Shown piece after piece: positions 4,303-63,592 of a DNA stretch of 64,000 bases. Every line of letters begins with the position of its first letter. Position 1 is the first letter of the stretch. The notes beneath the pieces are model-generated. The model did not search any database. It saw only the letters and a program-made list of their open reading frames with translations, and had not been told where the DNA came from. Source of the stretch: a virus (Duplodnaviria > Caudoviricetes); the IMG/VR virus record IMGVR_UViG_2974750029_000001, positions 1,219 to 65,218 of that record; one strand, written 5' to 3'. The translations under genes were made by a program, and so were the position numbers.

Positions 4303-4607
4303 CGATGAGGATGAGGTTTGTCGAGGAGTACGCGGTGGAGTGGCTCCGCGCCGACGGCACCACGATCCAGTCGGAGCCGACGCGCTCCTTCGAGGTCGCC
4401 GCCAGCGCCGCGGAGTGGCTCCCGCGCCAGAAGGGCATCCACATGGCGCGGGTCCTCAACCGGACGATCCGGCAGGAGAAGAAGTGGTGGCAGGTGTTCT
4501 GGCTGGACACCGGCATGACCCGCTGGTTCGACGCCGAGGAACGCTTCGAGAACCCTCTCGTCCCCATCGAGGAGGACGGTCGGTTTGACGCCGTTGACGT
4601 CAACTGA
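4299..4607 (+). CDS. Hypothetical protein
   Basis: ATGA overlap with the upstream gene. Confidence 0.75.
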   Translation: MTMRMRFVEEYAVEWLRADGTTIQSEPTRSFEVAASAAEWLPRQKGIHMARVLNRTIRQEKKWWQVFWLDTGMTRWFDAEERFENPLVPIEEDGRFDAVDVN

Positions 4608-4613
4608 TACAGT
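4585..4613 (+). promoter_or_regulatory. SigA-like promoter with GTTGACGTCAAC in the spacer, probably leaderless
   Basis: TTGACG 4585-4590, 17-nt spacer containing the palindrome 4593-4604, TG-A-TACAGT extended -10 ending 4613, ATG at 4620. Confidence 0.75.
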
Positions 4614-36341: not shown

Positions 36342-38932
36342 TCCTTCGCGACCCTGATGCCCTTGTAGATCAGGGTCGAGGTGACCTTGCCGTCCCGGCG
36401 GACCGAGGCCTTCTTGCTCTCGTATCCGTTGTCCCGCATCCGGCCAAAGAAGTCCCGCTTACTCAGCACGTCGCGGATCTCCTCGCGAGCGGCCCACTGC
36501 CGGTAGAGCTCGAAGAGCACGGGGGTCTGGACGCGGCCGTTCTCGTCGTCCTCGACCATCTCGTCGAGGAACATCTGGAACGTCGAGGTGCCCGCGATGA
36601 ACGTCCGCTGTCGCTTCTTGACCGACGGGGGCATGTTTACGTCGAGCCCTTCCATTAGGTAGTCGAGCAAACCATCGACAAGCCAGGAGAGGACGGCCTT
36701 CAGAGCCTCGGGGTTGTTCTTGATCGGCTCGGTCTCCACCGTGCTCGGCGGGACCTGCCGGTCGAAGGGGAGCACCAACAGACGCCGCCACAGCGCCGCG
36801 TCGCCGTCCTCGATAGTCGGCATGGAGTTCGTCGCGACGATCGGGGTGAACATCGGGGTGCGCTGCACCATGACGTTCGAGTAGAGCGCACGAGCGATGA
36901 CCGAGTCGCCACCGGTGAGCCGCTTGATCACGTCGGCGTGCAGACGGTTCCGCTGGCCGATCTCGGAGGCGAACACCACGCGGCGGGGAAGAGCAGACAG
37001 GATCTCGGGCATTGGCCCTGAGTCCCGCTTCTGGCGGAACAGCCCGTTCATGTCGATGACGGCCCCGTAGTCACCCAGGCACGCCTGTACCGATTCGAGA
37101 ATCGTCGTCTTGCCGGTCGAGGTGCCACCCTGGATGAAGACGATGCGGCGCTGCGGGTTTCCGCCGAGGAAGGCGTAGCCGAACACCTTACGCACGTACC
37201 GCCGGTAGTCGGCATCGGGGAGGAAGGTGTTGAGGTAGCTCTCCCACTTCGGATGAGTGAAGTTGGGCTCGTAGGGGATCGGGGTGTGCTGGAGGATCAG
37301 GTCTTCGGGACGGCCTTTGCGGCAGAGAGAGTCGTAGTCGACGTCGACCCCGCCGTTCTTCGCGGCCGCGGTGAGGTCGAGCACGCCGTTGCCGACGCCC
37401 CAGGTGGTCGGGTTGGTGTCGAAGTCCGCGGGGTCGATCGCGTTGCCGGAGAGGACGTGTGCCATCGACATCGAGTGCTCGATGATCGTCCGGTTGCCCG
37501 CGGTGATGGCCCGCTTGGAGTAGGCCTTGGCGAGCTTCTCGGTGTCCTCGGCCTCGGCACTGCCCTGCTCTTCGAGGATCTCGGCCTGGCGGAACAGCCG
37601 GTTGGCCGTGGCCTGGAGGGAGGCGACGACCGACTGGTTCCAGAGCAGGCCGTAGGTCTCGGACTTCGAGAGCTTGACCAGGCGGCCGATGCTCTCGTCC
37701 CACCAAGCCCAGTCGTCGGTGCCGGAGCGAATCGGCCGGATCGAATCGCCGAGCGCGTCGAGGAACATGCGCGCGCGGCCGGAGTCGTTGTCGTCGTACT
37801 CTTCGGCATCGACGATCGTGTTCCGGCGCTCCACCCACTGCCGCAGCATCTTCTCGCGGAACAGGTCGAGGTCGATGTTGCCGTCCTCAGCGGTGTATCC
37901 GCCGACGGGGGAGATGCGGATCAGGTCGTTGGCGATGTCGTCGCGCAGCTTCGAGACCTCGCCGCACAGTGCGCGTCGCCACTCCGCCTGGGCCGCCGAG
38001 ATGTCGCGCCGGGCCTCTTCGGACTCCGCCCCGCCGAGCACCTCGGTCAGGAACGCCTGCCGGACACGGTTGATCGCGATCTTCAGGCCGTGGTGACCCT
38101 CGGCGGAGAGCTGAACGACCTCGTGCAGACGGGCAATCAGCAGGTCGTGTGCGCCGGTCGACATCTCCTCGCGCAGCTTCTCCGGCTCGGTGACGCGGTT
38201 CATCTGCCCCGAGGGATCGTTGTCGTAGCCAGGGATCTCGGCCTGGAGCCAGCCGAAGGCCTCTTCGACGTCGTCGATCTCCTCGATCTTCCGAGCCTCT
38301 CCGGCCTCCCCCTTGAACAGGTGGTCGACCCAGGACTCGGGGAGGTCAGGGAACTCGGCGACGTGCGGAGGCTCGTCGAGGGGCTGGTCGTTCGCGTCGT
38401 ACCACTGGTACGCACGTCCGTCTGTCTCCGAGGGCCATGCGACGGCGTAGCGGTGGGTGCGCTGGATGATCTCGATGTCGGGGCCGGGCTTGCCGCGCCA
38501 CTTCGCGTTGGCGGGGACGCGGAAGAACCGGATGCCCGAAGGGTTTTCGGGGTCGCGGGAGGTCGATCGGTAGGTGCGAGGCAAGGGCCCGAGCTGCTCG
38601 ACCAGGTCGGTGAGCGTCTCCCCGCCGTGCTTCTCGTCGTAGTCATCGACGTCGATACCGAGGAGCTCGTAGAGCACCCCGTCGACGGGGAACTGCGGCA
38701 TCCGCAGACCCAGGTTTGCGGAGGCGATCTCTTCGCACCAGTTGTTGATCTTGTTGATGTCGGGGTAGGGCTTGTTCCCGGTGGAGTCGTCCGGCGGCGG
38801 ATACTTCATCCCTTCGGGCAGCGGGAGCGGGCTATTCCATCCGCGCCGGAGGTAGATCGAAGCGTGATCGCCGTAGATGTCGGACAAGGGTTGTCTCCTA
38901 GAGGACTTGTTCGTTGAGAAGAATCTCGTCAA
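36338..38932 (-). CDS. Bifunctional primase/polymerase fused to D5-like SF3 helicase
   Basis: GW..LPL...K.PP, NLGLRM, IDVDDY and VAWPS prim-pol motifs; GGTSTGKTT Walker A, ASE, KRLTGGD, TNSMP and WRRL. Confidence 0.92.
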   Translation of the reverse strand: MTRFFSTNKSSRRQPLSDIYGDHASIYLRRGWNSPLPLPEGMKYPPPDDSTGNKPYPDINKINNWCEEIASANLGLRMPQFPVDGVLYELLGIDVDDYDEKHGGETLTDLVEQLGPLPRTYRSTSRDPENPSGIRFFRVPANAKWRGKPGPDIEIIQRTHRYAVAWPSETDGRAYQWYDANDQPLDEPPHVAEFPDLPESWVDHLFKGEAGEARKIEEIDDVEEAFGWLQAEIPGYDNDPSGQMNRVTEPEKLREEMSTGAHDLLIARLHEVVQLSAEGHHGLKIAINRVRQAFLTEVLGGAESEEARRDISAAQAEWRRALCGEVSKLRDDIANDLIRISPVGGYTAEDGNIDLDLFREKMLRQWVERRNTIVDAEEYDDNDSGRARMFLDALGDSIRPIRSGTDDWAWWDESIGRLVKLSKSETYGLLWNQSVVASLQATANRLFRQAEILEEQGSAEAEDTEKLAKAYSKRAITAGNRTIIEHSMSMAHVLSGNAIDPADFDTNPTTWGVGNGVLDLTAAAKNGGVDVDYDSLCRKGRPEDLILQHTPIPYEPNFTHPKWESYLNTFLPDADYRRYVRKVFGYAFLGGNPQRRIVFIQGGTSTGKTTILESVQACLGDYGAVIDMNGLFRQKRDSGPMPEILSALPRRVVFASEIGQRNRLHADVIKRLTGGDSVIARALYSNVMVQRTPMFTPIVATNSMPTIEDGDAALWRRLLVLPFDRQVPPSTVETEPIKNNPEALKAVLSWLVDGLLDYLMEGLDVNMPPSVKKRQRTFIAGTSTFQMFLDEMVEDDENGRVQTPVLFELYRQWAAREEIRDVLSKRDFFGRMRDNGYESKKASVRRDGKVTSTLIYKGIRVAKD

Positions 38933-44000: not shown

Positions 44001-44337
44001 GCAGGCGGGGGACGTACTTGGTCTGCTCCCAGGCCAGGGTGACCAGCCGGTTGAGGTTGCGGTAGCCGACCTCGTTCATCGCCAGCACCGTCTGGTGGAA
44101 ATGCCGTCGGCGGGGCTCGTCGGCCGGGGCGATGTCGAACTCGCAGCCGAAGATCGGCTTGATCCCGGCCTCCTTGGCGGCGATTTCGAGCTGCACGTGC
44201 GAGCTGACGTTGCGGTGCTCGGTGAGCGCGAGCGCGTCCATGTCGAGCTCGGCCACGCGAGCGACGTGCTCGGCGGGCTTGCGGTACCCGTCGCCGTGGC
44301 TGAACGAGCTGTGTGTGTGGAGCGAGACCCACTTCAT
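41086..44337 (-). CDS. dnaE: DnaE-like DNA polymerase III alpha subunit
   Basis: PHP domain (LHTHS, LTEH, GCE, TADVHY), GRGSAAGS, FERF, PDIDIDF, KLDILG, GIFQF and YQEQVM. Confidence 0.95.
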   Translation of the reverse strand: MKWVSLHTHSSFSHGDGYRKPAEHVARVAELDMDALALTEHRNVSSHVQLEIAAKEAGIKPIFGCEFDIAPADEPRRRHFHQTVLAMNEVGYRNLNRLVTLAWEQTKYVPRLHLNQILDPELTEGLIVTSGCADSWISCTLLGGKSLGDRREDWTDESVDETRALIAKFQKCYGDRFYLEAQMFPELDRAVLLNQFFADVSAAEGIPLVATADVHYPHPDQNVVQRMLHAAHRGGTVATQDADWEYDVRLTYPESDAHCLQALLDCDLTRAEAKAAVEGAREIADRCNVELPKSDRVVFIERGPQMSAADRLKKWINEGIEFRAETNPGFAQRWDIDTDAYLERIHYEFSIIEPKGFCDYFLVTADLVRWAKDVAKMGVGPGRGSAAGSLLCYLLRITEIDPMQFPLMQFERFIDPSRPDDPDIDIDFEDPKAVFAYAQGKYGADKTAHIANYMRYRGRTAVQDTARAHELADFSEVYELKELIVDRDDGDPRENFSVADAIGTFDRARQIVEKYPDLKMAMAIEGDYRGMGIHAAGLVISTQPIADTCAVYTVAKDGVTRRGISYDKRDAEYLGMLKLDILGLKTMRLIHDCLDWIGMTFEELYALPLDDVEVLESVFGTGDLTGIFQFDGRTTRGIVNKLAGQTDFEFRHLADINALSRPGALISGQTSHYEAVELGQEEPRDWGYPAVNAVLQSTNGCLVYQEQVMGMGRVAGMPGDRVSQLRRIIGKKKQGGAFEAFWEEFRDGMKSEIGMPEDDARELWDYMAASSSYLFNIAHAVCYAVVGYWLAWLKHYHPKYFYAAALRGADKDQQLSLLKDAAAHGFSILAPDLAMSGLTWEPVTSGPSIRAGFTQIDGVAEKVGQKMVEWRDREIGPPPEKGVNFKALLHDWDDMRYVAPKKGRKTKPDEPSRGVPGLGAKTVERIKALTASADPFGINKAARAVQTIEQAIENGEIGLLGGNTPSSLLLECVDEKVVFIGLIREVKVKDHFEGLRKRTGESIEALKAKTERPELSTKATVIAEDAEGIEVHLYVSRWMYPALADELAAVDGNTAVHVVGISRDGHGPSIQAETVEIIELEEP

Positions 44338-47121: not shown

Positions 47122-47140
47122 GTTGACGTCAACTGTATCA
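47122..47140 (-). promoter_or_regulatory. Extended -10 element followed by GTTGACGTCAAC
   Basis: Minus strand TGATACAGT (47140-47132) overlapping the palindrome 47122-47133, upstream of the recombinase RBS. Confidence 0.6.
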
Positions 47141-47157
47141 GAACTTTCCCGCCGAGG

Positions 47158-48357
47158 CTAGAAGTCGCCCTTGCGCTCCTCGCGGTGTGCCTCGTAGGGG
47201 TCGCGCACGTGGTAGGCGACCGACTTCAGCATCTCCACGTCCCCGCCGTTCTCGTCGGCCAGGCAGAGGTTGTAGAAGTCGCAGTCCCAGGTGCAGTCCG
47301 ACGTCGGGGTCTTATACAGCGGGAGCAGCCCGTCGCGCATCGCGTTCATCGACGCGACCTCGTCGGCGATCCGCTGGATCTGCTGGCGACGCTCCTTCGA
47401 GGTGCGATACACCGGCTCCCGGTGGAACCGCGGGGAGGGCTGCTTATTCGACACGTCCCCGAGCACCACCAGGTCCCGCTCGTCGGCCTCCTCCTCCAGC
47501 GCGGCGAGGGCCATCTTCTTCAGCTCGGCCTCTCGCTTCGGACCGACCTCATCGACCCAGAGCTGCGAGAGGCCGTCGTCGGCGTACTTCTTCGCCTCGA
47601 CCTCCAGCAACGCCTCGACGAAGTGGCTCTTCTTGGGCTTGTTCGTCGCGAGGCCCTGTTCGTTCACCGGCCGGTCGTCCGGCGGGGCCTTCATCAGGAA
47701 GTTGTAGAGGATCCCCGAGATCCGCTCGTTCTTCCCGATGGTGCCGTCGCGCCGGAGCACGTTGTCGGCCACCGCCCAGTAGCCGCCCGCCTGGTCGTCG
47801 AGCGGGAGGTGGTTGGTGCGGATCGAGCGCGCCGTCTTGTGGTCCCAGAGCCAGATCTTGCCGGTGGCCTGGTCCCGCGCGACGATGTCGAAGGTGCCGT
47901 GGAACTTGGCAACCGGGGTGGTGTCCTTCGGCCGGTCAGGGTCGATCCCGGTCGAGCGGGGAATGCTCACTCCGAAGGGCCGCTCCGGCGAGAGGATCTC
48001 CCACTGCTCGTCGTGGCCGTAGGTCACCAGGTAGTTGTCGAGCATCGCCAGCCCGACGCCTTCGGCGTCCATCACGACCTGCTCCGGCTCGCCAGGGATG
48101 CCGCTGTCGCGCATCTCTACGCGGATCAGCTCACGCACCCCTTCGCAGTACTCCGACCAGGTCTCGCGCAGGTCGCGGCCGCGCTCGGTGCCGGGGATGT
48201 ACCAGTGCTCGAAGGCCAGGTGGATGCCGGTGCCGAACCACAGCGGGAGCTTGCGCTTGTTCGACTCCAGCCCGTCGCGCCAGGCCCACCACCACCGTTG
48301 CGGGCACCGCTTGAAATCCTTGCGCTCCGACCCGCGGAGCAGGGGGAGGTCAGTCAT
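47158..48357 (-). CDS. Cas4-family / PD-(D/E)XK exonuclease
   Basis: FKRCPQRW, GTGIHLAFE, GTFD, DHKT and C.WDCDF..LC motifs. Confidence 0.88.
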   Translation of the reverse strand: MTDLPLLRGSERKDFKRCPQRWWWAWRDGLESNKRKLPLWFGTGIHLAFEHWYIPGTERGRDLRETWSEYCEGVRELIRVEMRDSGIPGEPEQVVMDAEGVGLAMLDNYLVTYGHDEQWEILSPERPFGVSIPRSTGIDPDRPKDTTPVAKFHGTFDIVARDQATGKIWLWDHKTARSIRTNHLPLDDQAGGYWAVADNVLRRDGTIGKNERISGILYNFLMKAPPDDRPVNEQGLATNKPKKSHFVEALLEVEAKKYADDGLSQLWVDEVGPKREAELKKMALAALEEEADERDLVVLGDVSNKQPSPRFHREPVYRTSKERRQQIQRIADEVASMNAMRDGLLPLYKTPTSDCTWDCDFYNLCLADENGGDVEMLKSVAYHVRDPYEAHREERKGDF

Positions 48358-51978: not shown

Positions 51979-52003
51979 CTCTTGTTCTCAGTGCTCATGG
52001 GGA

Positions 52004-52942
52004 TCATCCAATCTTCGTGACGCGGGCGAGGGCAACGGAACGGAATCCGCCGCTGACTTCGAGGAAGTGCAGGATGCGGAGATCCTCCCCGAACTCGATG
52101 GGGTCGAACTCCGCGGGAGTGATGTGCGGCGGGTGCTTGCCGCCGTTGGCATCGACTACGGCGCGGTCGAGCGCGCCGGACAACGAGTTGCGCCAGACTA
52201 CCTCGACCTTGCCCTTCGCGAGCTTGGTGAGGATCTCGGTGTTCGACAGTTCGCTGGCGACCTTCGACCAGTTGCGATCGGGGTTGGCCTGCTGACCGCG
52301 GACCGCGGCATAGGTGCCCTGCTGCGACCAGACCGCGTGCTCGGCGTCCTTCGGCTTGGCCTCCTCGGCAGCGGCCTTGTGCGCCAGCGCCTCCTGCGCC
52401 ACCTCGGCGTCGTCGGCCTTCGGCCCGGTGCCGTAGAACTCGGATACGGTCTGATCGGCGATGCCAGCGGGGATGGGCGGCACTTCGTCGGCCTGCTCCT
52501 CGATGGGCGGCACAGTGGGCGGCACAGCCTCGACCTCCTGCTGGTGGGCGGCACTATGGGCGGCACTGGTGGGCGGCACTGGGGGTGCGTCGGCGGGCTG
52601 CTGGCTGTCCTCGGCCCCGCTCGGCTGCGGCTTGACGTGGAAGTCGTTCTCGATCGCCTCGCGCACGTCGCCGGACTCGGGGTCGAGCACCTTCTGCGCG
52701 CCGATGACGTCGACGTAGGTGACCTGGTCGCTGTCGGTGTCGGGGTCGATCGCATAGAACGCGCGGATCTCCTCTGCGCCCCACTCGTTGCCCAGGTCGC
52801 GCCGCAGCGTGACGAAGGCGAACTTCTTGTTGGCGCGGGGTGCCTTGGGGGCGACCCAGCCGTACTGCTCGGCGTGAGCAGTGATCTGCTTCGCCATGTC
52901 GAGGGCTTCGGCCTTCGCCTCTGCGAACTCTTCTGGTGTCAT
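52004..52942 (-). CDS. Hypothetical protein
   Basis: GAGGAGG RBS; two globular regions joined by a Pro/Ala linker. Confidence 0.8.
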   Translation of the reverse strand: MTPEEFAEAKAEALDMAKQITAHAEQYGWVAPKAPRANKKFAFVTLRRDLGNEWGAEEIRAFYAIDPDTDSDQVTYVDVIGAQKVLDPESGDVREAIENDFHVKPQPSGAEDSQQPADAPPVPPTSAAHSAAHQQEVEAVPPTVPPIEEQADEVPPIPAGIADQTVSEFYGTGPKADDAEVAQEALAHKAAAEEAKPKDAEHAVWSQQGTYAAVRGQQANPDRNWSKVASELSNTEILTKLAKGKVEVVWRNSLSGALDRAVVDANGGKHPPHITPAEFDPIEFGEDLRILHFLEVSGGFRSVALARVTKIG

Positions 52943-53029
52943 GCTTCCTCCTCGGTTGAAACTCTGAAATCCTAATCAGAACAACGGAACTGGTCATATT
53001 CGGCTTATTCGGCTAGTACCCGCGTACCG

Positions 53030-53095
53030 CCCGGCTCCCGCGTCCGGCCTGGCCCCGGCTCCCGCGTCCGGCTCCGCGCTCGACCCCGGCTCCCG
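53030..53095. repeat. Direct repeats CCCGGCTCCCG(CGTCCGGC)
   Basis: 19-bp copies at 53030-53048 and 53054-53072, partial copy at 53084-53095; also TATTCGGCT twice at 52997-53014. Confidence 0.8.
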
Positions 53096-53104
53096 TGCGC
53101 GCCC

Positions 53105-53165
53105 TCGAACGCCCGTTCGACCGGCCGTGCCGCTCGAACATCCGTTCGATCGAACCTCTGTTCGA
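53105..53165. promoter_or_regulatory. Three perfect actinobacterial LexA (SOS) boxes
   Basis: TCGAAC-N4-GTTCGA at 53105-53120, 53134-53149 and 53150-53165. Confidence 0.8.
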
Positions 53166-53470
53166 TCCGGTGTCACTCTCACCCCGGCCGGTTTCCCGTT
53201 CGCGCTGTGCCGCGCGATCGCCGTGTGACACCGTCGGCGCGCTATCTGTGTCGCCGTGGTCGGCCGGGTGTCTGTATCTCACCCGGTGCGCGTAACCCTC
53301 GCGCTGTGACCCGTGTCCCGCTGTTCTGTTCTCAAGGTGCATATGGCTTGCGCCGTTGCCAACACTGTACCGGTTGATCGCCAACCGACGCAAGTCCCGT
53401 GTTGAGCGTGTCCCCGCGGCCGGTCGTCGGTGCCGGTCTCACCCGCGGGGGTGTGCTGCTGTCCCGGCCG

Positions 53471-53531
53471 ACGATACGCAACTCACGCGGTTAACGTCAA
53501 CTAGACAAGTAGGCGAGATCTCGCCTACTGT
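53471..53531. promoter_or_regulatory. Divergent promoter pair with two palindromes
   Basis: Leftward TTGACG-18-TATCGT (53500-53471); rightward TAGACA-18-TACTGT (53502-53531); GTTAACGTCAAC at 53490-53501; perfect 22-bp palindrome at 53508-53529. Confidence 0.6.
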
Positions 53532-53581
53532 GACCCTCAACCGGCCGCACACGGCGACCGGCACACCGAAAGGATCTCCCC

Positions 53582-54373
53582 ATGACAACGTTCAACGTCC
53601 GCGAGCTCACCGGCGACGACGCGGCGCAGTACCTCGACAACCGGCCGCGTATGCGCGCTTTCCACGTCGACGGCCGCGGGGTGTCGGGACCGTTCACCGT
53701 GCAGACCATGCTCACCCCGTTTGGTGCGCCGGTGCATCGTCCGATCGACCCGGCGACCGGTCGCGAGGTGCGCGAGGATCGACCCGTCGCGAGCTATCCC
53801 GGGTTCGTATTCGAGTTTGGGCCGATGGTCGTCGGGACCTACGTCAACACACACGACGACGCGCAGCGGCACCCGTACCCGTTTACTGTGAACGGCCGCG
53901 AGTACCAACGTCTCACCGTGCGCGCCGACTTCCATCCGATCGACGTCGTCGAGTCGAGCAATTTCTACGGGGTCAAGCGCGCACACTCGACGAACGGTTA
54001 CACCCTCGCGCAAGCGCGCACTCACTGTGAGTACAGCGGCGAAGTGGTCGCGTCGCCGGTCCCCGGCACCGACGGTGAAGCTCACACCGGTATCTACGTC
54101 GTCGACGTGCGCGACTATCTGCGCGAGGTCACCGACTCGGCACGCCGGACGCTGCGCCGGTTGGTCTCGCACGTCATCGCGACGACGTACCTCGGCGACG
54201 CCGACCACCACGACGACATGCTGGACCTGATCGCCCGCGACATCCGCGCCGACATCGTCGTCGCTGATGAGATCTCGACCCGTTGGCAGCGCGAGTCGGC
54301 GCGTCTCCAGAACCTCGCCATCGCTGCGCGCACGACGGCCGTCCGCAACCCGATTGCGTCGGTGATCGCATGA
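53582..54373 (+). CDS. Hypothetical protein (right-arm cassette)
   Basis: CGAAAGGATC RBS; 263 aa. Confidence 0.8.
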   Translation: MTTFNVRELTGDDAAQYLDNRPRMRAFHVDGRGVSGPFTVQTMLTPFGAPVHRPIDPATGREVREDRPVASYPGFVFEFGPMVVGTYVNTHDDAQRHPYPFTVNGREYQRLTVRADFHPIDVVESSNFYGVKRAHSTNGYTLAQARTHCEYSGEVVASPVPGTDGEAHTGIYVVDVRDYLREVTDSARRTLRRLVSHVIATTYLGDADHHDDMLDLIARDIRADIVVADEISTRWQRESARLQNLAIAARTTAVRNPIASVIA

Positions 54374-54762
54374 CGGCCGCTATCGCGACGCGCGTCGAGT
54401 CGGGCCCGCTGCGCGTCGACGTCGAGCGCGTCGCCGACACCGTCGCGACGCTCACCGCGGCCGGGTACGTCTGGCAAGTGATCGCCGACGGCGACGACAC
54501 CGCTCCGCGGGTGCGCGTCACGTGCCACGGCCGAAAGGTCTCGCGTCTGTTCGATCGCTGGCAGTATCCGCGCGCGGACGTCTGGCACGCCGTCGGTGTC
54601 GCCGGGGTGCGCCTGCTGACACGCGCGGACGTCGTCGAGATCGACCACGAATCGGCCGGTCTCGGCGCGGCGAGCTACGTCGGCCGACGGCCGCTGCCTG
54701 ATCACGAACGGCACGCCGTCGAGTCGGCGACGCGGTTGTACGTCGTGCGAGATCTCGCCTAG
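54370..54762 (+). CDS. Hypothetical protein
   Basis: ATGA overlap; ends at the next promoter. Confidence 0.7.
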   Translation: MTAAIATRVESGPLRVDVERVADTVATLTAAGYVWQVIADGDDTAPRVRVTCHGRKVSRLFDRWQYPRADVWHAVGVAGVRLLTRADVVEIDHESAGLGAASYVGRRPLPDHERHAVESATRLYVVRDLA

Positions 54763-54791
54763 TTGTCACGATTAACGTCGACGGGTAATGT
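54763..54791 (+). promoter_or_regulatory. Repeated right-arm promoter
   Basis: TTGTCA-17-TAATGT. Confidence 0.8.
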
Positions 54792-54844
54792 CGACGGCGC
54801 GGCCGGGTCACACGGCCGCAACCCCCACCACGAAAGGATCGAAC

Positions 54845-55600
54845 ATGTTGATCAACACACCTCACGGCGTGACGGCGACCGTCGACGCTCGCACGACATA
54901 CGCCTACGGTTCGCGCACGGCGACCGGCACGCTTCGCACGGCGACGGTGACCTACCGCAGCGGGTACGGACACCCGGTGCCGGTCGCGCTCGACGCGATC
55001 GCCGGGGACGAATGGACACCGTCGGCGCACCCGGCCGGTTGGGACACTCCCCCGACGCACGTCGATACGTGCGAGGTCTCGCGCTACCTCACCTCGGCCG
55101 GTGCGCAGCGGGTGCGCGGCGAGCTGCTCAACCGGGCCCGGCGCGCACAATCGGCCACATGGGACTTCACCCCCGGCCGTATCTACACCGGGCCCCGCGT
55201 GTCTGCTCTCACCGTGCGGACGAACCGTGTGTGTGTCGTGTGGGACCGGCGAGACCTCATGTGGTGGGAAGACGTGACGACTGACGACGCGCCGGTATAC
55301 CTCACGCACCGCGACGGGGTGCGCGAGATCGCCGACGTTCGGCAGTACCTCGACGACCGTCGCCGGTGGATTCACGGCACCGATGACGCCGTTCAGCTCG
55401 ACGCTGACACCGACACCGGCATCGTGCGTCTGTTCGGTCGGACGGTCGCCGACGTCGTCCGGTGTCTCGACTGCGGCCGTGCCTGGGATGACGCGCACGC
55501 CTCCAGCTCGACCCCGGCACCCGCTGCCCGGTGCCCTTTTGAGTACGACCACGGTCGACCGGCCGCGCAGCGCGCTTACCCGTTTGGCGGCGAGCGGTGA
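54845..55600 (+). CDS. Hypothetical protein
   Basis: CGAAAGGATCGA RBS; C-terminal CLDCGRAWDD...TPAPAARCPFEY.H motif. Confidence 0.8.
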   Translation: MLINTPHGVTATVDARTTYAYGSRTATGTLRTATVTYRSGYGHPVPVALDAIAGDEWTPSAHPAGWDTPPTHVDTCEVSRYLTSAGAQRVRGELLNRARRAQSATWDFTPGRIYTGPRVSALTVRTNRVCVVWDRRDLMWWEDVTTDDAPVYLTHRDGVREIADVRQYLDDRRRWIHGTDDAVQLDADTDTGIVRLFGRTVADVVRCLDCGRAWDDAHASSSTPAPAARCPFEYDHGRPAAQRAYPFGGER

Positions 55601-63050: not shown

Positions 63051-63365
63051 CCTTATCCGGTCCCGGCGCGCCGGTCGACCTAGTCCCGGCCGTTGGTGAA
63101 CCTCACCCCCGATACCTCACGGTGTCGGGGGTGAGGTGCGTTTAGGGCACCCCTCGCGGGGGGGGTGCCACGGGTAGGGGTGCCATACGGCCGCGGTGTG
63201 ATCGGCGCGAGATCTCGCCACACGGCCGCGTGCTGCGCGCCGATTGCGCCGTGGGACCTTGCACCCGGCCGGGGACGTCGCACCTCGCGAGGCGAGCTGT
63301 GAGCGGGCCCTACGGGGTGCCCTAGTGGGTTGTTTTTCGAGCGGGTGTGGCGAGGGTACGGGAGG

Positions 63366-63592
63366 AAAATTGAAAAACTCATAATTCCTCATGAGGAATT
63401 GCATTTTCTTCATATCGAACAATTATTCGATATGTATAAACAATGGGATAGATATATGGCTATGGGTAGGGGTCCTATATAGGGGTGAATATGGCACATA
63501 TACATATATATGTATATTGCATATTATTTATTGGAATAATTATTTGATATTTGAATTATCAATTTGTTTTTGTTTGTGTCAATCATGACAAC
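63366..63592. other. AT-rich island of consecutive palindromes
   Basis: Roughly one quarter GC by eye; perfect palindromes at 63383-63400 and 63498-63517, plus further stems. Confidence 0.9.

Follow-up and report, generated by a model that had tools for sequence, protein, structure and literature searches.

LexA-type boxes in the replication-operon leader of cluster CR Gordonia phages probably connect phage replication with the host SOS response

Why would a phage with no annotated integrase or repressor carry three perfect copies of what appears to be the SOS operator of its host, all within 61 bp ahead of its replication genes? The question was raised by a preliminary description of a viral DNA window of 64,000 nucleotides (bases 1219-65218 of the 65,218-base IMG/VR record IMGVR_UViG_2974750029_000001), which reported TCGAAC-N4-GTTCGA three times, two copies back to back and each with a different spacer, as well as a one-mismatch copy at 63415-63430. 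All four sites were recovered. Box 1 (TCGAACGCCCGTTCGA, 53105-53120, spacer GCCC) is the nearest to the first leftward gene, with its end 162 nt from the ATG at 52942, and box 2 (TCGAACATCCGTTCGA, 53134-53149, spacer ATCC) abuts box 3 (TCGAACCTCTGTTCGA, 53150-53165, spacer CTCT), 16 bp from centre to centre. All three are perfect. Sites with ≤1 mismatch numbered four in the window; 100 dinucleotide shuffles averaged 0.40 and never reached four. Perfect boxes were expected at 0.0019 per window under a mononucleotide model and occurred once altogether in 300 first-order Markov simulations. No further box at ≤1 mismatch was found in the whole record. The one-mismatch box (TCGAACAATTATTCGA) is a weak member that sits within a longer palindrome, CATATCGAA-N6-TTCGATATG, and because it was confined to the closest relatives checked (HubbaBubba and BiPauneto) and is missing from Tracker, it carries little weight. 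It lies near the right genome end in an extremely AT-rich island of ~230 bp (63360-63590) in a 66% GC genome, ~0.4-0.6 kb from that end, with promoter-like sites on both strands.

The window derives from a Gordonia phage of cluster CR (Emilbogenvirinae), with positions 52000-55000 being 94% identical to Gordonia phage HubbaBubba, 91-93% identical to Sukkupivirus members and, over parts, ~75% identical to Foxboro-, Kabluna- and Skysandvirus. The boxes fall within a 639-bp divergent gap between the first gene of the leftward replication operon (52004-52942, minus strand, 312 aa, PHROG 12059) and the first gene of the rightward arm (53582-54373, plus strand, 263 aa, PHROG 26936). Behind the first leftward gene follow genes for a WhiB protein, an SNF2-type helicase, a Cas4-type exonuclease, an ASCE ATPase, a thioredoxin, a DnaE-like polymerase, a RuvC-like resolvase and a primase/polymerase, with the names beyond the helicase taken from the HubbaBubba annotation. 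In that annotation genes 1-48 run rightward and comprise small genes, virion and lysis genes, genes 49-71 run leftward and comprise the replication genes, including those for two WhiB proteins and an HTH protein, and genes 72-87 again run rightward with no assigned function. The absence of an integrase and a repressor, as first described, agrees with the annotation of close relatives, HubbaBubba included, and with the prediction that all cluster CR phages are lytic (available part of PMC13313380). The product of the first leftward gene gave no Pfam family, and its AlphaFold2 model (43 sequences; mean pLDDT 80, pTM 0.52) had no Foldseek match in the PDB at E ≤ 0.001. Sm-like and WYL-type barrels were considered and set aside, as the best Foldseek rows reached only E 0.14-0.3, and likewise the best hit in a wide VIA-align search (Z 6.7) covered residues 1-105 only and fell within that tool's range for common arrangements.

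Are these palindromes LexA operators? They had been described as the actinobacterial SOS box consensus, and they do match the Mycobacterium tuberculosis LexA consensus, TCGAAC(N4)GTTCGA, for which PMC3381160 gives 24 genomic sites at ≤1 mismatch and, between lexA and Rv2719c, a group of four. The Streptomyces venezuelae consensus is given as tCGAAC-N4-GNNCGa (excerpts of PMC9380542). A search of a bacterial genome collection with the exact doubled, abutting pattern returned eight stretches, all from Actinomycetota, and in all eight lexA starts within a few hundred bases, with a LysM-domain gene on the opposite side in at least three. One of these genomes (5.2 Mb) holds seven perfect boxes altogether, and a LexA match was found in 392 of 401 genomes drawn evenly from its order, six flagged as unpublished being included. 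This GTDB order was reached from Geodermatophilus and we take it to include Gordonia; the sample is order-wide. From the matches listed we took 40 lexA upstream regions at even steps, and every one contained a box at ≤1 mismatch (reversed pattern, 0/40), with a perfect box in ten and a 16-bp abutting pair in nine. The motif thus stands at the lexA genes of the order itself. LexA operators classically overlap promoters, and in this respect the phage boxes differ, as they overlap no recognisable promoter or start and stand 190-360 nt downstream of the nearest predicted promoters.

The boxes also vary as protein-binding sites would. Among 27 distinct phage boxes we counted 14 one-sided arm changes and one compensatory change, which argues for a sequence-specific site and disfavours a hairpin. 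Small ORFs annotated over the boxes were likewise considered and rejected; their translations are rich in Arg, Pro, Ser and Gly, the three boxes fall in different frames, annotators differ on the strand of the overlying ORFs, and an open frame carries no weight here because each of 18 phages has four to six open frames across the cluster anyway. When the entire record was searched in six frames with TIGR00498 and PF01726, no phage LexA homologue was detected, although a relative recognisable by structure only could escape such searches. From the consensus match, the conservation described below and the layout shared with native lexA operators, we consider it very probable that Gordonia LexA binds these boxes.

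Conservation was assessed in 21 Gordonia CR phages of six genera (Sukkupi-, Foxboro-, Kabluna-, Skysand-, Gruuna- and Pleakleyvirus), and in all of them one to four boxes (≤2 mismatches), at least one of them perfect, occupy this position, and the distance from the end of the nearest box to the ATG is 131-171 nt. Twenty of the 21 have an abutting pair, the exception being Fury with its single box, and Skysand- and Gruunavirus have two abutting pairs each. This holds across considerable divergence, the adjacent first leftward gene sharing 51-61% protein identity between the window and box-bearing phages of other genera. When five representatives of four genera were aligned (Sukkupivirus, Foxborovirus twice, Kablunavirus and Skysandvirus), 31 of 36 arm columns were invariant, compared with two of 12 in the spacers and 109 of 568 in the rest of the intergenic region. 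The suggestion, made initially from the differing spacers, that selection acts on the arms is therefore borne out, and the comparison with relatives proposed at the same time shows the array to be a constant feature of these Gordonia CR phages. More distant relatives differ, there being no box upstream of the homologous gene in any of the five Rhodococcus and Nocardia relatives inspected (Maselop, GuyFagieri, MacGully and ChewyVIII from Rhodococcus; NC1 from Nocardia), which indicates that the array is dispensable for this genome architecture. In four of these five, all but GuyFagieri, the whole records contained 0, 0, 2 and 1 boxes at ≤1 mismatch.

A conserved palindrome could in principle serve a phage-encoded or another host protein and merely resemble a LexA operator, a reading that we hold to be very improbable. 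Candidate DNA-binding proteins do exist, namely the HTH protein and the two WhiB proteins of the HubbaBubba annotation, and many genes are common to all box-bearing genera and undetected in the box-less relatives. A phyletic test for a co-inherited binder, in which 425 window ORFs were compared with six box-bearing and four box-less genomes, was fitted by dozens of ORFs, spurious frames included, and is not discriminating because the box-less relatives are distant. Against another binder, the LexA consensus is matched at 12 of 12 positions three times over, the variants in relatives (TCGAAA, TCGCAC and ATTCGA) keep the core, the abutting layout copies that of the native lexA operator, and unrelated viral contigs of 46% GC share a four-box design. 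Moreover, nothing in the window is homologous to the 'HTH' gene that neighbours the first leftward gene in Emianna, or to its BiPauneto and HubbaBubba counterparts.

A better candidate operator for a phage regulator is a second palindrome, GCGAGATCTCGC, which occurs in 11 copies at ≤1 mismatch against 0.89 expected, with none of 100 shuffles reaching 11. Its copies lie at 53513-53524, 54747, 55071, 55739, 57905, 60405, 60468, 60670, 63207, 63831 and 20181, so that ten are in the rightward-transcribed right arm, and one of these (53513-53524) fills the spacer of the predicted rightward promoter P_R. This set looks like the operators of a phage-encoded regulator, distinct from the LexA-type boxes, and LexA remains the binder that we favour for the latter.

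What, then, might bound LexA do at this place? Read leftward, the gap comprises two predicted promoters, P_L1 and P_L2, then a conserved block GGCGACA..AGCGCGCC, a hairpin (53217 to 53200), the three boxes and a GC-rich spacer. P_L1 (TTGACG-18-TATCGT, 53471-53500, minus strand), like all the promoters named here, is predicted by consensus match only, and its -35 region is back to back with P_R (TAGACA-18-TACTGT, 53502-53531, plus strand). P_L2 (TTGCGT-18-TACAGT, 53364-53393, minus strand) was read from sequence comparison, with related sites in other genera; across genera its hexamers are kept and its spacer sequence varies. The boxes would thus lie ~190-250 nt past the inferred start of P_L2 and 300-360 nt past that of P_L1. 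Between the boxes and the ATG lie, in order, a low-complexity GC-rich spacer of ~85 nt, a pair of GTAC repeats, an AT-rich tract of ~50 nt and a ribosome-binding site. The boxes and their immediate surroundings contain no TA dinucleotide, and hence no -10-like hexamer. The original placement of the boxes between the leftward promoter and the replication genes, off any promoter, agrees with these predictions, in which no sigma-70-type promoter overlaps a box. Of 17 Gordonia phages scanned with fixed criteria, 13 have a promoter-like site that precedes the first box by 131-315 nt, and the other four (Marietta, Tracker, GTE8 and Patio) have none at the scan threshold. In the box-less Rhodococcus phage MacGully a comparable site, TTGACA-18-TACAGT, lies 294 nt before the ATG, which suggests that the long leader existed before the boxes did.

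Several other features of this region were recorded. Promoter-like sites of the family T[TA]GnCn-17/18-TA[CT]nGT number four in the window (4585-4613, 47132-47160 and, within 53471-53531, the remainder) against 0.28 in simulations, and the site at 4585 also holds a palindrome, GTTGACGTCAAC, as does the divergent promoter pair of relatives. The conserved leader hairpin (53200-53217, minus strand), ~35 nt upstream of the boxes, has a 6-bp stem, TCGCGC/GCGCGA in the window, and the loop GGCACA, which across genera, at homologous places in seven further loci, reads GGCNNA with four stem variants (TCGCGC, TCTCGC, CACCGC and GGTCAC). Four of its six pairs change on both sides and none of 500 shuffles reached its covariation score, in segments that were picked by a search for perfect hairpins and with both Kablunavirus genomes having no hairpin at that place; RNAalifold found no covarying pairs in a wider leader alignment. 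It might be a nut/boxB-like site. The GC-rich spacer (53031-53104) contains the direct repeats CCCGGCTCCCGCGTCCGGC in the window, and its transcript strand, G-rich in Sukkupivirus and Commandaria, is rich in C in the remaining genera, as though the segment had been inverted. An Rfam search of 52800-53700 returned only mir-278 (E 0.36, both strands), which we rejected as a chance match to the palindromes.

The reading that we put forward as the best, and hold tentatively, is that LexA forms a roadblock, or gate, on transcription of the replication operon. The three boxes would be high-affinity operators for the Gordonia SOS repressor, lying in a long leader transcribed from the promoters at ~53.37-53.50 kb toward the ATG at 52942. 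Three LexA dimers, two on the abutting pair and one 29 bp off, would block or strongly damp read-through of the leader by RNA polymerase, such that expression of the replication module would be gated by the level of intact LexA and hence by the SOS state of the host, and transcription into the GTAC-repeat/AT-rich element would be gated likewise. Three steps of this model are inferred: binding by Gordonia LexA, activity of the predicted promoters and hindrance of elongation by the bound repressor. The fixed position of the array within a diverging leader favours a roadblock, and the long leader in box-less relatives, along with the precedent of the Bacillus thuringiensis tectivirus GIL01, also supports it. 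For the third role originally considered, that of a mere host-protein anchor at the module boundary, nothing was found in support.

Several points count against a gate. Sukkupivirus alone has an extra promoter-like site, ATGACC-17-TAGGAT, whose end is 26-27 nt from the ATG and which would, if active, bypass the boxes. The four Gordonia phages with no promoter-like site upstream of the boxes at the threshold used, the absence of the array from the five Rhodococcus and Nocardia relatives, and the lack of promoter overlap, unlike classical LexA operators, also weigh against it, and for a lytic phage to tie its own replication to SOS induction seems risky.

The main rival to the gate is that the boxes act in trans as a LexA sponge, with hundreds of perfect operators on multiplying genomes draining free LexA and so inducing host SOS functions, namely recombination, repair and a division block, without DNA damage, to the benefit of the phage; we judge this rather unlikely, if the strongest of the alternatives. 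The notion of a LexA sponge is part of general background, and the literature searched held no relevant passage on titration of LexA by operator copies. Perfect consensus and multiplicity fit a sponge as well, in that all three phage boxes are perfect when any perfect box was present in only 10 of the 40 sampled bacterial lexA regions, and the sites lie off any promoter. One phage copy would add three perfect sites to a host complement for which the 5.2-Mb actinobacterial genome, with its seven, and M. tuberculosis, with 24 at ≤1 mismatch (PMC3381160, in part), give some measure. Some relatives are box-rich across their whole records (≤1 mismatch), with 11 in GRU1, nine in Fury, seven in Patio, six each in BiPauneto and Kabluna and three in Tracker, against 0-1 with the pattern reversed. 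In GRU1 and Fury most of the additional boxes fall within replication-gene coding sequence, and they are not independent because some are identical between the two phages, at 37412 and 38316 in GRU1 and at 44309 and 45069 in Fury, inside the RuvC-like and DnaE-like genes. These coding-sequence boxes and the single leader box of Fury fit a sponge as well as they fit multiple roadblocks. However, a sponge needs no fixed place, and in all 21 phages the array has stayed put in the leader as its flanks diverged; furthermore, Tracker and the record of the window itself hold no, or almost no, boxes elsewhere. Titration could coexist with the gate and, if LexA binds, would be an unavoidable side effect of genome replication. 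Two boxes near genome ends were also observed, a perfect one 29 bp from the left end of Fury (29-44) and a one-mismatch box at bases 6-21 of BiPauneto.

The element directly upstream of the first leftward gene (52955-53030, minus strand) raises another possibility. It consists of GTAC repeats (53011-53030) with a period of 8-9 bp and an AT-rich stretch, and could be an origin-like iteron with an unwinding element or, alternatively, the site of a regulator. LexA bound beside it might control origin firing or transcriptional activation of the origin and not gene expression as such, which we regard as improbable. In all genera the repeats and an AT-rich stretch of ~50 bp lie 80-150 bp from the boxes, an arrangement that resembles iterons next to an unwinding element. 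On the other side, Rhodococcus phages that lack the boxes have the element too, and the first gene product has no recognisable initiator fold. A GGTAC-then-AGCC motif was seen too in two of three box-less relatives printed (Maselop and MacGully), and in weaker form in NC1.

It is equally improbable, in our estimate, that LexA acts as a GIL01-like surrogate repressor, keeping the replication operon off in unstressed or slow-growing cells so that the phage persists silently and resumes on SOS induction. GIL01, which has no classical repressor, is held by host LexA downstream of its P1 start (excerpts of PMC4551915), and plaques of StarStruck and RedRaider are described as clear with turbid edges (PMC9583778 and PMC12821328, each in part). 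Yet stable lysogens of StarStruck were not obtained (same portion of PMC9583778), CR phages are predicted to be lytic (PMC13313380, likewise in part), partition or plasmid-maintenance genes are not annotated in HubbaBubba, and the record holds no detected LexA homologue. The dormant mode and the origin-linked role are both less likely than the gate and titration, and the roadblock on leader transcription remains our preferred reading. Whichever of gate and titration prevails, replication of CR Gordonia phages is, judging by sequence, probably wired to the host SOS response or interferes with it.

Comparable arrays occur in other viruses. Two unrelated viral contigs of 46% GC carry two abutting pairs, hence four boxes, upstream of a gene, with direct repeats before them, and the ORFs flanking the array in one of these contigs gave no Pfam family. 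A relaxed pattern of two CGAAC-N4-GTTCG cores 16 bp apart (Cheo-type) retrieved 39 IMG/VR stretches with arrays of two to seven boxes at 34-68% GC, and no LexA or LysM match was found within them. Off-promoter LexA-box arrays may therefore be common in uncultured phages. A bolder proposal, which we think unlikely, is that they are a widespread device by which virulent phages read or drain LexA, the CR array being a surrogate-repressor switch that sets a reversible dormant or delayed mode released by SOS. In the literature searched, supplements aside, we found no description of LexA boxes in these phages, and the words 'LexA' and 'SOS' are absent from PMC13313380 and PMC5559632, again supplements aside. 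That a subfamily reported to be strictly lytic has kept perfect operators ahead of its replication genes, even as protein identity in the adjacent gene fell to 51-61%, suggests that sensing or manipulation of the SOS state extends to virulent phages. If the gate is real, the timing of infection and burst would depend on host DNA damage and on recA/lexA genotype, which would be relevant to phage therapy and to foam biocontrol with Gordonia phages, and a sponge, if real, would induce SOS without the need for a protein. The system lends itself to testing: the host is a laboratory strain, the sites are three short palindromes, and the box-less Rhodococcus relatives could serve as comparators.

Compared with the bacterial region that holds lexA and the LysM gene (Rv2719c-type) in actinobacteria, the phage array shares the 16-bp palindrome, the grouping of several boxes in ~100-300 bp and the abutting pair. 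It differs in that the phage boxes are not beside lexA, are off any recognisable promoter and are all perfect, whereas the bacterial boxes are mostly imperfect. Use of host LexA by temperate phages is textbook knowledge and triggers induction; in coliphage 186 (tum) and CTXphi (rstA), host LexA operators in the phage control regions couple development to SOS. Those operators overlap the promoters of single regulator genes in temperate phages, which the CR boxes do not.

GIL01 resembles the CR phages in having no classical repressor, and in it host LexA at dinBox1 and dinBox1b, downstream of the P1 start, controls the replication and regulation module (PMC4551915, in part), a role that the CR boxes may share. 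GIL01 also depends on a phage co-factor, gp7, and carries a gene for a LexA homologue (abstract of PMC6182141). However, GIL01 is temperate and its sites are next to the start, one being only a half-site, while the CR boxes precede the replication operon ~190-360 nt into the leader of phages reported to be lytic, the profile searches of the record detected no gp6-like LexA homologue, and the published accounts of CR phages speak against a temperate life style.

Stoperators stop elongation, and the mechanism proposed for the CR boxes would be stoperator-like. In cluster A mycobacteriophages and cluster CA Rhodococcus phages, as proposed for the CR leader, repressor sites lie inside transcribed regions and not on promoters (available part of PMC13313380). 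Stoperators, however, are asymmetric sites of 13-14 bp that are oriented with transcription, number tens genome-wide and bind the phage's own repressor, whereas in the CR phages, where no repressor is annotated in a close relative, the boxes are symmetric sites for what is very probably the host repressor, and three of the four in the window stand together in one cluster.
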